DNA from: Botryllus schlosseri
Lineage: Eukaryota
Length of the DNA stretch: 60,000 nt
Reading direction: 5' to 3'
Assembly (NCBI GenBank): GCA_051294905.1
Contig: CM119371.1
Coordinates: 1,366,001 to 1,426,000, forward strand
Positions 18,429 through 26,220 of the stretch are shown piece after piece; the first letter of the stretch is position 1; each line of letters begins with the position of its first letter. The notes under the pieces were generated by a model. The model saw nothing but the letters and a program-made list of their open reading frames with translations, did not search any database and was not told the origin of the DNA. The translations under genes and the position numbers were made by a program.

Positions 18429-19113
18429 AGACCACTGTGATGCTAATAGCACATTGGCAGAAATATAATGACCGGGTGAATCATTGTGAATGTACCTGTA
18501 AATCACGTTATTTTTCCGTATGTAAAATTTAGAATTAACTGGGATATGGGTTGCCAGATCAAAAAATTCTTCAAAATAAAACGGTTGCCTGTTATCATAG
18601 TGTTCTAAGGTGGTGTAGACACTACCGATCGTTCCGCTTCGTCAATTTGGAAAGGCAGTCGCCAAGATGCTATCTCTGCCGCTTGAGCACAGGGAAAAGT
18701 TGCGTTCTAATCAGATCTAGGAGGTTAATTGGTTAGCGCGGTATGTTTTCTGTACGCAATTCATAATGCTGAGATATCACTTCGTAGATTAAGATGTTAA
18801 ATTTTGCTGCCGGTAGGGTTTTTCAGGCAGTGCCAGCGGCATGTTATCGTGTTACATTGCAACTGGAGTAGCCTGTCATAGCTTCCTTGGGAATGTTATC
18901 GTTATCAACTATATGTTTTTGTGTCTGCTGTATGGAATCGACGTGAATATAGTGGGCACACAATTCCCTGTTAGCGCATTACTTTACCTTGGAAGATTAT
19001 TGCTGGCCGGTCGTTATATTAGGCATACCGTACATGAAATTACTTGATGGCTGATGACACAATTTTCTTGAGAAATTTAGTGTTGTAGTGTTCTTAACTG
19101 GTTGCAGAAAATA

Positions 19114-22100
19114 ATGTCAGGCTCCAATTGCTGCGTTCCTGGTTGTCACTGGCATTCACAAAAGGCTCGGAAATCCGGAACACAACGATCGTTTTTTCAA
19201 ATTCGAAGACCAGATTTGGCGAAAACCGAAGAAGAAAGGAAACATAGGGAGGCTCTGCGTAAAATTGTATTACAAATTAGGGATCCAACACAGGGAGACA
19301 CAATAAAGAAGCAACTTCACAAGGAATCGTGAGTCATTGCATATGCCGCATGTGAACTATAGCCTATATACGCCTACCGTATATCTCTTTGTTAGATTTT
19401 GGATGATGATTCTGTTTGAAGTTTATCGCATTTCAGACTTACCGTGTCAATAATGATTTGTACTTTCAATAGAGCCACTATCTGTGATGTCCATTTTCGC
19501 CCTGATGACATCATGAGAAATGGAAAAAGAGTAAGTCTGAAGCTTGGTGCCGTACCCATCCTGGAAATGCCGGAAAAATTCATTTCACCCAAACCTACCC
19601 CGCGAAAATTTCCACCGACACGATTTGAAACCCCGCTAAAATTGCAACATAAATGCCGTACTGATATTTGGAAGTCGATTGAAAAGCTGTCATCAAATGC
19701 AAAAGGTAGCCTATATGCTTACCAAACGCAGTTTTGCTCGTTAATCCTTAGATGAGTTAAAATCGGCACTTTTCACAGGAAATTGGGTTTTCTATGACAA
19801 AAGACAGATGTTTGTAGCAGAACTGCAATGTAGCGATGAAGTCTCTCCCAAGATTAAGTATTAATATTTCCATCCCTTGAGTTTGATATGGAGTGTTAAA
19901 AGTATGAGTGTGTTCAGGTTGCAGTTTGATGACAATATGCATCTCTGTCTGATGTCCGTTTATGGTTGGAATGTCCCGCTTGAGGCATTTCCATCTGGCG
20001 TCAACTTGCAACATCAGACTTTGAATGCGTATTTACGTGAGTAACAGCCTGTTTACGCCTTCGCAGTTATGCCTAGGTCAATGTTTGCAGAATAGCTTGT
20101 TGGGCGAAGGGCTTTTTAGAATAGTAAATTCACTCACATATGGATAGTGATATGAAACTGATATTCATAGGTGTGTATATAGCTTCAGTAGGTAACTGCA
20201 AGATAATAATTAGGTAGCGTTATAATGATTGTAAACATAGAATAATATCGGAGGGCACTAATAGGTTGTGGTTTTGTGAGGAGCTTGAGGTAGAGCATCT
20301 CATAGTAGAGCATCTTGTGAGATGAGAGTAATGGAGGAAATTTGCTTAGTGAAAAAATTGATAGCCCTAGGTAAACTGTCTTCTAAATAAAGTGGCGACT
20401 TTTCAGGAGATGTGGAAGCTATCACAATATGTGAGGGTACTGGAATGCCATACAAAGTACAGAACTCTGTTGTTCATCCGGTGATTATGTTGAATAACGG
20501 GCAGCTTACAGTCCATGAAATGATACGATCACCAGAGTGCCAGATTATTGGTAATAGTATGTTCAATTTAAACCGTTTTGTGAGGATATCTTGACAATAT
20601 GATCCTATGAATTTATTAGCTGGCTGTGTTGAAGACAACAAGTGTTGCATGAAATGTGAAGTCTTTGAGGGAAGATCAGATTCCACATTACTTGTTGAGG
20701 ATTCCGTTGACGTTCAGGTGAACCTCACAGTTTGAGTTGTGTTATGATTGTTTGATTGCTGGTTTTTAAGTAATTGTTCCGAAGTAGCAAGAGCATGTAC
20801 ACTGTACAGTATACAGCGTTAAAGCCATCAGTATTTTTCATTATGACTGCTCAACATTTAACCTGGCTTGAGATTTTTCAGGGAATGCAGGAACCTGGTA
20901 TTGTACAACCTAATGAATGGCAAGAATTATTTTTACGAAATCAAATTGAAAATTCATCGGTTTGCTCTACCAGAAGAAGGTACCATCCGGATGTGATTAG
21001 ATGGGCTATTGAGTTTTATTGTCGCTCACCTGCAGCATATCACCATGTTGTAAACAGTAAAGCCCTCGTTTTACCTTCTGGCAAAACAATACAACGTTAC
21101 AGGTTTGAATATTTCACGGTCTCGTTGAATTGCCATCTGGTTTACTTATACACTTTAATAGGAATTGCATCAAGCCTCAACCAGGAATCAATGAAATGGT
21201 GGTCAGTGAGATCACAAACGTCATGAAGCAGCATGAATTCCTTCCGGCTTTTTTGACTTTGGATGAAATGAAAAGTATATACTGAAATCTTGGTGTTTTA
21301 TAATCAGAACATATTGTTGTTATTTTGCAGTCCGAGAAAATTTGGTTGTATCAGACGGAAAGTTGATTGGGTTCATCGATCCAAATTTTGTGAATGACTG
21401 TCAACTGGCTACTCACATACTTGGTAGTAACAAACTATGATATAAAATTGATCGTTGATTAAAGTATATTATATTTACAGTGTTTTACTTACGAACGGTT
21501 AAAGGAGAGATTTCCTTGCCACTTGCATGGTACCCAACAAGCATTACACCACAAGCGGATCTATGTTTAATATTCTGGGAAATACTTGCTCATTGTGAGC
21601 GTTTGAATTTGAGGATTCATGCTGTAATTGCAGACGGCATGTCAACCAACCGCAAATTTTTTAAACTTATTGCTGGAGTTGACTCAATTCCGATACGGTG
21701 TGCATTCACAGCTCCAAATCCATATGGTCGGAACAGACCAATTTTACTTTGTTCTGACCCCTCACACCTTCTCAAGGTGAGTATAGAAATTGCATTTAGT
21801 GGTACATGAAGGTGTTGAGTGATTGATGTATATTTTGCAGACTGCACGGAATGCTTTATATTCCTCGAAACCGGGAGGAAAAAGGTTCATGAATAGAGCT
21901 GGGAAGCATATTTTATGGACTCACATTGCGAAACTGTATCATAACGAGAAATACAGCCTGATGCTCCGACGATCTCGACTCACAGAAAATCACATAAAGC
22001 TGAATCCTTACTCCAAAGTATGTATCATTTGTGTGTTAGCGTGACCAATATAGTTCAGGCCCATTAGTTGCGGAATGAAATTATTAAAAGATGAAGGTGA

Positions 22101-22849
22101 ATCTAGCAAGGGATGTCCTCAGCTGGGAAGTGGGAAAAAATCTTGAAACCATGGAGGGAGCCAAGGGAACCTCGGAATTCGTCCTCATGATGAACAGGTT
22201 TGAATTCTTTCGTTATTTTTGTCATGAAGATGGGTAAATAATTCTACCTTCTATTATTGAAGCTGGTTCGAAATTGTCAACTGTGGGACGAGGAATCCTA
22301 TCCGCACTATCACTGACAACAGAATTACGAAATTGAAGGAGTTCGTTGAAGAGCTACTGCGTTGGAAAGTGTGTATTGGTTGCAATAATTCAGCCTTATA
22401 TCTTCCAAGACATTGATTATATTATAGGAAGAAGTGGACGGATTTGGGGAACAGATGCGTATACTACCTCAGCCGACTTTGGAGGGGCTAATATTCACCT
22501 CAAGAAACTTCGTGTTTTTATGTGAGAGACTCCTTCAAGAAATGGATTATGTGCGGCTGCGAACTTTTTCACAGGATATATTGGAAGCATTTTTCGGAAA
22601 CCTCGTTAGTATCCTTGGGGTTTAGGATCACATAATTTCATTTGTTCAGATGACTAAATTTAACAGAGAACTTTGGGAAGGTTTTCCCAGAATCCGGACA
22701 TCCAAGAAGTCGGATATGGAATCCAGCACATCATTCAACGAAAAATAATCAAGAAAGTCAAAGGAGGGAATACAACGTACGGTTCTCGTAATGCTTGGAC
22801 TGCAATATGTCATGAGCCTTTACCAAAGCGCCAAAAATCTGATGGTTAG
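19114..22849 (+). CDS. THAP-domain P-element transposase, 15 exons, ~790 aa
   Basis: Manual GT-AG splicing gives an open frame: THAP (CCVPGC...ICDVHF...LKLGAVP), YHPDVIRWAIEFY..SPAAY...LPSGKTIQRY, catalytic LTLDEMK and IADGMSTN, SDPSHLLKTARN, MKVNLA, FSQDILEAFFGNLR, ending ...EPLPKRQKSDG* (TAG 22847-22849). Confidence 0.92.
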
Positions 22850-23500
22850 CCGTAGACCGAAAGTGGTTTCGGAATGGTCGCTTATATCTCGAATCATTTT
22901 CAGAAATTCCTGAATCTTCCAACAGCACCAACTGATCTCTCCACGTAAATCCACACATCTACATCCTCCAGCATTGTGTTCTTCAGAAGGATCAAACTGG
23001 CCATATCTAATTCAACAATGTCGACATCAATATGGGCAACTATCTCTACCCATCACAAACTATTTCATTATTCGACTTGAGTAGCTTCAATTTTGGCAAC
23101 TATGTCGATGCGAGAGAATAATGGAATATTTCCTGGTATGGTCGAGATAGTTTCGGACATTGATACTGCTTGATGGTAACAAAATGTTCCATTGGCAACA
23201 TTGGCAGAATAGATACACCCGGTCAAACCCTACTACTTGTATGATTAAATTGATTGATTTATCTGTTTTCAATTTCATGAATTAGGCTACTCCGTCGAGC
23301 ACAATAAAGTTCTACTTGTGATAGTACTGGTAGTAAGACGTTTGATTCTTTGTGTCTATGGAAATAGGTGAGGTGACTACATTGACCGCTATATGTAGCA
23401 TACGATTAGACCTATTTGAAGCAGGTAATACTTGGTCATATTATTGCATATATCCTGGTAGAAGGTTAATATACCAATGAACCTAACTGATAGGCGGCTA

Positions 23501-23617
23501 GCATACTCTATCTATCAAGACATTGTAAGTAGCTCCAGCTGGAAGCCTATTTTCTCCAAGGCATACTCTATCTATCAAGACATTGCAAGTAGCTCCAGCT
23601 GGAAGCCTATTTTCTCC
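23501..23617. repeat. 57-bp direct repeat x2 in the P-element intergenic region
   Basis: gcatactctatctatcaagacattg[t/c]aagtagctccagctggaagcctattttctcc at 23501 and 23561. Confidence 0.85.
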
Positions 23618-23738
23618 CTTGGATGATGTCTTATGACTGCTGCACTATTGTTTCGTTTGTACACAAAATCAAGTCCCATATATTCAACATGATGACTGTA
23701 ATTGGAAAAAAAGCTGCAATACAAATGATGACAAAAAT

Positions 23739-24638
23739 CTACTGCTGCACCTGTCGTTTGAGGTCACCTCTCAAGCCTCGTGAAAGGAGGCATTTGCTGC
23801 GCATCCGTTGAAATAATTTCTTTGCAAATCCCTTTGTGAGAAGAGCAATGACTGTTGTAAAAATTTGTAACACAATCTGTTCAGTCAAATCATGGTCAAG
23901 TTGAGACATCTCTTCTAGCCTTTCAACATACGATACATAATACAAATTGCTTCGAAGCTCTTTAGTGAAGATGGTTATATCTATTTCGTCAGGTCTCCTT
24001 CTGAAATGCTCACCCAGCATCAAGTACAATTTGTTCAAGAACTGTGCAAGCTCTTCAGAAGGGCAATACAGAGATCCTACTTTTTTTTCCATAAATGTGA
24101 TGAAACTTCCCGGTTTTGGTTGACTCGTCAAATTATCCAAGAGCGAGTTCTTTCCGAATTTTGCTACTGCCTTTTTCAGAGCAAATCCCCCTAGGTATTG
24201 GAGTGTGTCTGTCTCGTATGAAGTTATTTCCGTTGCTGTGGTCGATTCTGATGCGCATTTATTTTTCGAAATTATTTTGATAATTTGAAGGAGACAATAC
24301 GCAGGATCTCTGATTTCATAAGCACCTTTAAAAAATGAAGAAGCTCTAAGGCAATGCTTGCTTTGCTGAGCGACAAGCTTGTCTTTATTTCTTGTCACAG
24401 CATAATCCTGTATCCACATTCTGATATTTTGTAGTCCAAATGAAGTCAATTCAAGTTGCCCATCTCCGCCCTGACTTTCACGTAATAATTGTGTCACTTC
24501 TTCGTCAGTTATTTCTGGCACGGATCTTTTTTTCGAAGACGGATGGATGGGCAAAATATCTTCATCATCAAGCATCAGTAATTCTTGAATCAGTTCCGGA
24601 GAAAGCCACTCAACGCTATATTCTGGAATATTAGCCAT
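23739..24638 (-). CDS. P-element ORF2, 299 aa, intronless; resembles the P-transposase C-terminal domain
   Basis: Open 900-bp ORF starting ~16 bp inside the right TIR. DTLQYLGGFALKK...SFITFMEKKVGSLYCPSEELAQFL resembles the P/THAP9 C-terminal YIAGY..KK...GGL..PS motif; acidic N-terminus. Confidence 0.8.
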   Translation of the reverse strand: MANIPEYSVEWLSPELIQELLMLDDEDILPIHPSSKKRSVPEITDEEVTQLLRESQGGDGQLELTSFGLQNIRMWIQDYAVTRNKDKLVAQQSKHCLRASSFFKGAYEIRDPAYCLLQIIKIISKNKCASESTTATEITSYETDTLQYLGGFALKKAVAKFGKNSLLDNLTSQPKPGSFITFMEKKVGSLYCPSEELAQFLNKLYLMLGEHFRRRPDEIDITIFTKELRSNLYYVSYVERLEEMSQLDHDLTEQIVLQIFTTVIALLTKGFAKKLFQRMRSKCLLSRGLRGDLKRQVQQ

Positions 24639-25134
24639 TGATATTCAATCTAGAATTTCATGTACGTTTTGCCTACTATAACGGGTGACCAGCAATAATC
24701 TTCCAAGGTAAAGTAATGCGCTAACAGGGAATTGTGTGCCCACTATATTCACGTCGATTCCATACAGCAGGCACAAAAACATATAGCATGATAACGATAA
24801 CATTCCCAAGGAAGCTATGACAGGCTACTCCAGTTGCAATGTAACACGATAACATGCCGCTGGCACTGCCTGAAAAACCCTACCGGCAGCAAAATTTGAC
24901 ATCTTAATCTACGAAGTGATATCTCAGCATTATGAATTGCGTACAGAAAACATACCGCGCTAACCAATTAACCTCCTAGATCTGATTAGAACGCAACTTT
25001 TCCCTGTGCTCAAGCGGCAGAGATAGCATCTTGGCGACTGCCTTTCCAAATTGACGAAGCGGAACGATCGGTAGTGTCTACACCACCTTAGAACACTATG
25101 CTGTTATAGGCACTAATTGGTGGTTTCAGATTAA

Positions 25135-26220
25135 TACACTTTACCAGTATTGATATTATAACGGAATTTCAAAAATCATTTTCACTACCCTGCGGCGTCA
25201 AAGGCGTAACTACATATTGCTACAAGTTGAGAGGAGTATCCCAACATTACCCCCAAAAATATTTCAGCCTTCGGAACACAATAGGGGACCCACCAGAATC
25301 CAATGAAATGGGTCATTTTCAGGAAATAGACATACAAGTATTGATATTATAACGGAATAAAAAACCTAATTTTCACTACCCTGCGGCGTCAAAGGCGTGA
25401 CTACATTATGCTACAAGTTGAGAGGAGTCTCCCAATATTACCCCCAAAAATATTTCAGCCCTCGGAACACAATAGGAGATCCACCAGAATCCGATGAAAT
25501 GGTTCATTTTTCAGGAAAAAGACATACCAGTATTGATATTATAAAGGAATTCCAAAAATCATTTTCACTACCCTGCGGCGTCAAAGGCGTAACTACATTT
25601 TGCTACAAGTTGAAAGGAGTATCCCAACATTACCCCCAAAAATATTTCAGCCTTCGGAACACAATAGGGAACCCACCAGAATCCGATGAAATGGTTCATT
25701 TTTCAGGAAAAAGACATACCAGTATTGATATTATAAAGGAATTCCAAAAATCATTTTCACTACCCTGCGGCGTCAAAGGCGTAACTACATATTGCTACAA
25801 GTCGAGAAGAGTATCCCAACATTACCCCCAAAAATATTTCAGCCTTAGGAACACAATAGGGGACCCACCAGAATCCAATGAAAATGACCATTTTTCAGGA
25901 AATAAACATACCAGTATTGATATTATAACGGAATTACAAATATCATTTTCACTACCCTGCGGCGTCAAAGACGTAACTACATATTGCTACAAGTCGAGAA
26001 GAGTAGTAGTGAAAATTAGGTTTGTAATTCCGTTATAATATCAATACTGGTATGTCTATTTCCTGAAAATGACCCATTTCATTGGATTCTGGTGGGTCCT
26101 TTATTGTGTTCCTGAAAATGCTCCATTTTCAGTGGGTCCCCTATTTTGTTTCATTGGCTGAAATATTTTTGGGGGTAATGTTGGGATAGTCATTTCGACT
26201 TGTAGCAAGATGTAGTTCTT
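25135..26220. repeat. 192-bp tandem repeat (~4.5 copies) followed by an inverted, deleted copy
   Basis: taccagtattgatattata recurs at ~25142, 25333, 25525, 25717, 25909; orientation flips at ~26004. Confidence 0.9.

Follow-up and report, generated by a model that had tools for sequence, protein, structure and literature searches.

A P-superfamily transposon of Botryllus schlosseri with a transposase probably split over two convergent genes

Can the C-terminal domain (CTD) of a P-element transposase be encoded by a gene of its own? This question is raised by a stretch of 60,000 nucleotides (nt) of Botryllus schlosseri DNA (NCBI GenBank assembly GCA_051294905.1, contig CM119371.1, forward-strand positions 1,366,001 to 1,426,000), which we call the window and in whose coordinates all positions are given. 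At 18596-25100, the window contains one complete P-superfamily DNA transposon of 6.5 kb with two convergent open reading frames (ORFs), ORF1 on the + strand and ORF2 on the - strand. A first-pass annotation of this DNA had proposed a single P element with one gene for the catalytic core and another for the CTD, and the terminal repeats, target-site duplication, reading frames and homologies described below bear this out. The single transposase polypeptide including a CTD that is usual in the P superfamily was not found here. We consider it probable, at roughly 60%, that the element is an autonomous cut-and-paste transposon with a split, two-subunit transposase, in which ORF1 would be the catalytic body and ORF2 a CTD acting in trans. 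The inference of the first-pass annotation, a two-component transposase or a separately regulated cofactor or repressor, is supported.

The element is bounded by terminal inverted repeats (TIRs) of ~445 base pairs (bp), detected by an inverted-repeat search at 18596-19041 (left, + strand, 446 bp) and 24654-25100 (right, - strand) and 97.5% alike over 447 aligned nt. Complementarity is 100% between the outer arms (18596-18907 and 24789-25100, 312 nt) and 94% between the inner arms (18909-19041 and 24654-24786, 133 nt). Copies of CTGTTAT abut the left end (18589-18595) and the right end (25101-25107), giving a target-site duplication (TSD) of 7 bp, not 8; the chance of such agreement between flanking heptamers is ~6 in 100,000 (4^-7). 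As TSDs in the P superfamily are 7-8 bp, the element has both the inverted repeats and the duplication expected of a member. No second copy or fragment of it was found within the 60-kb window. The earlier view that near-identical TIRs and open frames mark the element as young and functional held in part: both frames are open, but similar arms do not date a cut-and-paste element.

ORF2 (23739-24638, - strand) has 299 codons plus a stop, and the ORF scan placed its ATG at 24638 in a stop-to-stop frame of 23739-24644. It is intronless and uninterrupted, as first annotated. Three lines of evidence support its assignment to the P transposase CTD. First, the Pfam family PF12596 (Tnp_P_element_C) was matched at E<=1 by 13 of the 21 aligned members of the ORF2 family, while no other Pfam family was matched by more than one of the 21. 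At E<=0.1, PF12596 was matched by 9 of 15 members scanned, and three of these 15 exceeded its cut-off of 22.6 bits (P0009, 23.3; P0012, 24.8; P0017, 26.5). The match was limited to profile positions ~58-105. Second, when the ORF2-family profile was compared with the sequences in PDB, the best match was 6p5a_B, the CTD chain of the fly enzyme (E 0.0012, profile positions 129-247; next match 0.15). With ORF2 alone as query, phmmer matched nothing in PDB but USP14, at chance level.

The third line is the predicted fold. An AlphaFold2 model of ORF2 was built on the 21-sequence alignment (pLDDT 80.9). Foldseek with this model returned no PDB match at E<=0.001; 6p5a_B had a probability of 0.91 and a TM score of 0.62 by target length, and the probability of every other row was 0.16 or less. 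VIA-align superposed residues 136-282 of the model on residues 617-734 of 6p5a_B with Z 9.8 and a root-mean-square deviation of 3.1, aligning 117 of 118 residues. This chain ranked first both among the Foldseek candidates (next Z 6.7) and among 48,161 representative chains, and the modelled ORF2 appears to share the all-helical fold of 6P5A chain B over the whole domain. We regard the homology of ORF2 to the P transposase CTD as established on the sequence evidence and the predicted fold taken together; the fold alone would be insufficient.

The homologous part, delimited by profile, fold and PF12596, comprises ORF2 residues 136-282 (23793-24233, - strand). It is preceded by residues 1-135 (24234-24638, - strand), where the alignment and the model indicate an acidic N-terminus, a conserved ELL-type helix and then a three-helix module. 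The modelled helices in this part are at residues 14-21, 45-55 and 66-125, and searches with the whole ORF2 model gave no clear structural match for residues 1-135. Residues 1-60 have a net charge of -10 and the last 40 residues one of +9. The last 17 residues (283-299; 23742-23792, - strand), which lie beyond the part aligned to the fly CTD, form a conserved basic tail with a GLRGDLK motif. In the fly CTD, according to excerpts of PMC7776569, the last 17 residues are basic, unmodelled and directed at the target DNA, and the basic tail of ORF2 may be their equivalent.

ORF2 belongs to a family of its own. Among 1.84 billion representative proteins, a full HMMER search recovered 31 relatives with E<=0.001, of which 20 were at E<=1e-10; a word-indexed search found 2. 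ESM Atlas gave no usable match. The relatives are 83-331 amino acids long, bar one protein of 2755 amino acids that matches only the acidic stretch 24-71. They are free-standing proteins of ~300 amino acids, not tails of long transposases. For 18 of the 20 clusters looked up there was no name; one was the Ciona intestinalis 'uncharacterized protein LOC113475742' and one an unnamed MetaClust entry. Across the 21 aligned members, the start codon, the acidic N-terminus with its ELL-type helix, the central motif LEYLGGY..KA...F followed by ME.K.G.L.YPS, and the basic end FAKKLF...GLRGDLK are all kept.

ORF1 (19114-22849, + strand) encodes a P-type transposase without a CTD in 15 exons, as judged from a spliced model, RNA and homology. 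The model was made by joining + strand stop-to-stop frames that had weak Pfam matches. The resulting frame is open from the ATG at 19114 to the TAG at 22847-22849, with 14 GT-AG introns, and encodes 797 amino acids. Ten of the introns are 56-73 nt long and the other four are 46, 144, 164 and 370 nt. The Pfam matches on the single frames run in the order of a P transposase, all below the curated cut-offs, because the introns cut each domain.

At the N-terminus is a THAP zinc-finger DNA-binding domain (PF05485; 19114-19705) on exons 1 and 2 (19114-19328 and 19473-19705), split by intron 1. The exon-2 frame alone scored 20.3 bits (E 0.00098) against a cut-off of 23.9, and the CxxC, CxxH and GAVPIL motifs of such a C2CH domain are present in the spliced model. 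Exons 3-6 (19752-19857, 19918-20036, 20407-20556 and 20620-20717) encode a Cys-rich region in the spliced model (19752-20717). It is weakly collinear with the N-terminus of a Ciona protein (P0044, below), and the two of these four exons that were scanned had no Pfam match. Residues ~185-307 (19918-20717) are the Cys-rich ones, and they may be an extra zinc-binding module particular to the lineage. The helix-turn-helix (HTH) region follows at 20882-21102 (PF12017, E 0.015); homologues align with it, and its splice donor at 21102 was seen in RNA.

The RNase H-like DDE domain is split by a GTP-binding insertion in ORF1 and its homologues. Its N-terminal half (PF21787; 21162-21776) is on exons 8-10, with E 9.6e-05 for exon 10 and 2.9e-22 and 3.2e-19 for the homologues P0038 and P0044; Asp residues 415 and 501 are the likely catalytic ones by motif position. 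The insertion domain (PF21788; 21841-22368) is on exons 11-13, with E 0.0012 for the ORF1 frame and 1.8e-15 and 4.1e-11 for P0038 and P0044. Exons 14-15 (PF21789; 22428-22849) encode the C-terminal part, with E 0.06 for ORF1 and 27.5 bits, over the cut-off, for P0044. The nearest named relatives of ORF1 are Ciona and Phallusia proteins. Over residues 170-791, ORF1 and Ciona intestinalis LOC101242444 (P0044) are collinear and 45% identical; LOC100183340 isoform X2 (P0038) is collinear with ORF1 as well, at 53% identity. P0038 in turn matched the fly chain 6p5a_A with E 7.4e-11, the catalytic Glu motif included.

RNA and variation between copies were both compared with the gene model. The RNA came from three runs: X16 (contigs), X23 (single-cell, 3′-biased, second mates) and X12. 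GT..AG joints for introns 7, 8, 9, 12, 13 and 14 were found in the X16 contigs, together with matching loose ends for intron 10, and three of the ORF1 joints were repeated in X23 reads. In all, 7 of the 14 coding introns and one optional 3′ intron were seen spliced. Modelled introns account for 36% of the ORF1 span and contain 19 of the 28 substitutions listed there between copies (binomial p 0.0006), together with 8 of the 10 listed indels. The substitutions were too few for a ratio of non-synonymous to synonymous rates: the ORF1 exons had 4 synonymous and 5 non-synonymous changes and ORF2 had 1 and 3 among the listed sites, with 42 further sites outside these counts. Run X12 resembles DNA or unspliced RNA, with introns present, and was not used for expression. 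From a bulk RNA run, X21, not a single read could be placed, so it does not count as a test of expression. The X12 and X16 contigs both begin exactly at 19106, 8 nt 5′ of the ORF1 ATG. In the X16 contigs, the six modelled 5′ introns are unspliced and the 3′ introns are spliced save one.

Two introns call for comment. Intron 2 (46 nt) could instead end at another in-frame acceptor, at 19778, in which case it would be 73 nt long and the protein 9 amino acids shorter. Intron 11 (22018-22090) is backed by homology, yet it is retained in an X16 contig. Its retention leads to a stop at 22042, before the remaining insertion domain and the catalytic Glu. The retained form could be a truncated isoform like the fly repressors, or pre-mRNA.

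Where ORF1 ends is central to the question. The protein runs on for 66 residues past its catalytic Glu, residue 731; the early stop had been recognized in the first-pass annotation, which put it ~68 residues after the Glu. The fly enzyme, whose catalytic Glu we take to be E531, continues for ~220 residues beyond it and not for the ~300 first stated. The 66-residue tail of ORF1 is basic (net +7), and the last exon with this tail is the best-conserved part of the protein (70% identity to P0044, against 45% overall). The alignment of ORF1 reaches the ends of both Ciona proteins (635 of 635 for P0044, 464 of 465 for P0038). Because LOC101242444 and LOC100183340 stop at the same point, the short end appears, by sequence comparison, to be a trait of the lineage and not damage to the present copy. 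P0038 aligns with 6p5a_A up to chain residue 557 of 569, which puts the predicted end of ORF1-type proteins ~40 residues further on, within the disordered linker of the fly protein. In the fly, the CTD is residues 566-751 (excerpts of PMC10824691) and is joined by a flexible disordered linker (excerpts of PMC7776569). P0044 and P0038, the two homologues scanned, had no match to PF12596, and both matched PF21787, PF21788 and PF21789. Comparison of the ORF2-family profile with the ORF1-homologue profile likewise gave no match (hhalign probability 0.05). These results support the view that ORF1 truly lacks the P transposase CTD.

An optional last intron at 22845-22903 (GT..AG joint 22843/22903, cut +1, in an X16 contig) removes the ORF1 stop codon. 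Its splicing adds only 10 codons before a TGA at 22932-22934. No ORF1 exon supplying a CTD, which had been named as a possible refutation of the two-gene proposal, was found in the spliced RNA contigs; the spliced X16 contig ends at 23142.

Two convergent, separately terminated transcripts exist. Of the 327 X23 reads placed, 323 were second mates. In the + sense, coverage peaked at 82x at 23062-23264, just before the ORF1 poly(A) signals (ATTAAA at 23244 and AATAAA at 23303; signal scan, 3′ end region 23244-23308). In the - sense, reads covered 23671-24076, at 21x over 23671-23873 and then at 10x, thinning towards the ORF2 start; a candidate ORF2 poly(A) signal, the variant AATATA, is at 23679-23684. 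Coverage was 0 over 23468-23670. The silent spacer between the two 3′ ends is ~340 bp long and includes two tandem copies of a 60-bp unit (23501-23617, 98% matches; repeat search). A contig of run X12 skips 73 nt there (23536 to 23610), so the number of units differs among copies.

Several observations weigh against a split transposase as we read it. The PF12596 score of ORF2 itself was 14.5 bits (E 0.055), under the 22.6 cut-off. The Foldseek E value for 6p5a_B was just 0.45. When the 48,161 representative chains were searched, Z values of 8.7-9.2 over 76-88 residues were also reached by three unrelated helical chains; according to the tool, a Z under ~13 can reflect a common arrangement in helical proteins. 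As for RNA, 203 of the 327 X23 reads were 95-99% alike and may derive from sister copies instead of the present locus. The X16 contigs covered ORF1 at a depth of ~9-11 and did not cover ORF2, though contigs cannot prove absence. They were also collinear with the genome over 19106-19925, 20371-21100 and intron 11. RNA thus does not confirm introns 1-6 and 11, which are predicted only from frame, homology and variant pattern.

Other loci also tell against this reading. A second intact element with both genes was not found among the metagenome, prokaryote-genome and viral contigs scanned, and for alignment A2 there was no relative in these three sets. The P0060 search recovered only two loci (L001 and L002), both with a decayed ORF2-like frame. 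At L002 (3576-4411), on a metagenome contig, the ORF2-like frame is frameshifted and truncated and has lost the basic tail, and it lies beside a 26-amino-acid ORF1-like fragment, a short piece of the insertion domain, on the same strand. This is physical linkage in a rearranged order, and hence a different arrangement from that in Botryllus. The named ORF1-like and ORF2-like genes of Ciona are listed on contigs of differing length, so there is no sign that they are neighbours. Finally, ORF2 is intronless while ORF1 has 14-15 introns, which fits separate acquisition as well as fission and leaves room for capture from another P element.

If the transposase is split as we propose, ORF1 would supply the DNA-binding and catalytic body, namely the THAP, Cys-rich and HTH regions and the RNase H domain with its GTP-binding insertion. 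ORF2 would supply the all-helical CTD as a free protein, with an acidic helical N-terminal module and a basic tail in addition. In the fly strand-transfer complex, the tethered CTD lies between one subunit's RNase H domain and its partner's insertion domain; ORF2 might dock at the equivalent place on an ORF1 dimer and would there provide contacts to transposon and target DNA. Excerpts of PMC7776569 describe the fly CTD as touching both DNAs and as having a basic stretch at its end. By analogy, a domain that works on a floppy tether at the partner subunit would be of the kind able to survive severing. ORF1 alone may resemble the 66-kDa repressor form of the fly, and ORF1 with ORF2 the active 87-kDa form. 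The ORF2 N-terminal module and the conserved ORF1 tail are candidates for a new interface. On these terms ORF1 would bind ORF2 and need it for transposition, and the element could be mobile at present.

Each gene is probably driven from the adjoining long inverted repeat. The ORF1 ATG is 73 nt beyond the inner edge of the left repeat and the ORF2 ATG 16 nt beyond that of the right repeat. Since both genes start just inside identical long repeats, promoters borne on the repeats are suggested, as in MuDR of maize; the left repeat would hold the promoter and 5′ untranslated region of ORF1, and the right repeat those of ORF2. A terminal motif, TAGTGTTCTWA, which recurs just 5′ of the ORF1 ATG, was tried as a binding site and rejected, as 40 of 100 shuffles gave an equal match count.

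The split might also serve as a regulatory device, an extension that we put forward tentatively and think somewhat unlikely. ORF1 alone would be a repressor-like protein bound to the element ends, transposition would take place only in cells that also express ORF2, and the covalent linker would have given way to a newly evolved pair of docking parts, the conserved ORF1 tail and the acidic N-terminus of ORF2. If this were true, sea squirts would use a second gene for what Drosophila achieves by germline-specific splicing of intron 3.

Alternatively, ORF2 could be a regulator and no subunit of the active enzyme, with an ORF1 that works independently of a CTD. As a free CTD, ORF2 would then inhibit or tune transposition, either through occupation of the CTD site or through contact with the transposon DNA. 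P elements do encode protein repressors, the 66-kDa and KP proteins (excerpts of PMC7776569). Expression of ORF2 also seems to be the lower of the two (3′ peaks in X23 of 21x, against 82x for ORF1, and nil coverage in X16), and the conserved basic tail of ORF1 might replace some of the CTD contacts. However, the known repressors carry the THAP DNA-binding domain, which ORF2 lacks, and the fly form without the C-terminal part is inactive (excerpts of PMC7776569), so that an ORF1 without a CTD would be expected to need this domain. We consider a purely regulatory ORF2 unlikely.

Less probable again, and doubtful in our view, is a dead end, in which a rearrangement (an internal inversion or a nested P fragment) separated the CTD, the element became immobile, and ORF2 is open and transcribed only by chance or for a host function. 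The single copy in the window, the failure to recover another intact two-gene element and the lack of introns in ORF2, unlike ORF1, would all be consistent with this, as would the frameshifting indels in exons 2 and 6 of the copies behind run X12. Against it stand the stand-alone ORF2 family of 31 clusters, which keeps its starts, central motifs and C-terminal tail down to 24% identity, and the same end in three ORF1 lineages. Neither frame is broken, exons have fewer variants than introns for their length, and near-identical 31-mers occur in at least 20 runs from 10 studies under three organism labels. Nor did the inverted-repeat search find inner inverted repeats or a duplication bracketing ORF2.

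That ORF1 gains a CTD from its own transcript through downstream exons or trans-splicing, leaving ORF2 redundant, is scarcely credible: the extra 3′ intron does remove the stop codon, but it adds just those 10 codons, the spliced contig ends at 23142, the 3′-biased reads pile up before the signals at 23244 and 23303, and two Ciona gene models share the end residue of ORF1.

A split, two-subunit transposase has to be set against the P elements already known. The Drosophila melanogaster P element (87-kDa protein; PDB 6P5A/6PE2) and human and zebrafish THAP9/Pdre have the same domain order, THAP, HTH and RNase H split by a GTP-binding insertion. They also share with the Botryllus element the TIRs and a short TSD, and their helical CTD is recognizable in ORF2. 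In contrast to the fly element, the Botryllus one encodes the CTD in a gene of its own, which is on the opposite strand and adds ~135 residues at the N-terminus, the TIRs are 445 bp and not 31 bp, and the TSD is 7 bp and not 8 bp. ORF1 has 14-15 short introns where the fly gene has 3, and a Cys-rich region of ~150 amino acids between THAP and HTH. A parallel is the Drosophila 66-kDa repressor (IVS3 retained), which is likewise a transposase body without the C-terminal part. This protein represses and binds P DNA but is unable to transpose; a regulated step adds what it lacks (excerpts of PMC7776569). Judged by mass ratio, this form would end at about residue 570, and the nearby RNase H/CTD border is at 566 (excerpts of PMC10824691). 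In Botryllus, the missing part would come as a second polypeptide from a second promoter and not by splicing.

Galileo and 1360, P-superfamily elements of Drosophila, make a 7-bp duplication and have very long TIRs, as here. Excerpts from the literature describe both with a single transposase gene and report no separate CTD gene, whereas the Botryllus element has two genes. For Galileo, the unusually long TIRs contain multiple THAP binding sites (excerpts of PMC3688188).

Two element-encoded proteins are also found outside the P superfamily. MuDR of maize (mudrA/mudrB) has two convergent genes inside long inverted repeats, as here, and shares this architecture alone; ProtoRAG is a further two-gene element, and the second protein of PIF/Harbinger elements is required for transposition. 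MuDR and PIF/Harbinger belong to unrelated superfamilies and their second proteins, unlike ORF2, are not excised pieces of a transposase, so the comparison is one of how such systems work. The MuDR repeats of ~215 bp hold the promoters and start sites of both genes (excerpts of PMC3440606), and PIF/Harbinger elements have a second ORF beside the transposase ORF (excerpts of PMC5543537).

Directly to the right of the element is a tandem array of 4.5 copies of a 192-bp unit (25142-26005, 92% matches), followed by partial inverted copies of the unit up to ~26234. A frame of 222 amino acids is open across these repeats; no Pfam family matched it credibly.

Kimbacher et al. 2009 (Mol Genet Genomics 282:165) reportedly described P-like elements of Ciona intestinalis, which come from the same host group and are probably of the same or a sister lineage. 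In the full-text literature, whose coverage did not extend to that Ciona study or to Repbase, we found no description of a two-gene P-superfamily element or of a separately encoded CTD; prior notice of the arrangement is possible. Reviews treat the P transposase as one polypeptide in the excerpts available (PMC7776569, PMC10824691).

A likely role can now be proposed for an unnamed family of ~31 clusters, including Ciona LOC113475742. If our reading is right, the P superfamily would be added to the few groups of eukaryotic DNA transposons known to encode two proteins. The two genes could also yield a two-part, titratable transposase for ascidian transgenesis. In flies, the activity of the P transposase hinges on the splicing-on of a C-terminal exon. 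A natural lineage with the CTD as a separate protein shows that this domain need not share a gene with the catalytic body. The split would mark a functional domain border independently of the cryo-EM structure, and it offers a simple experiment, one protein against two, on the role of the CTD.

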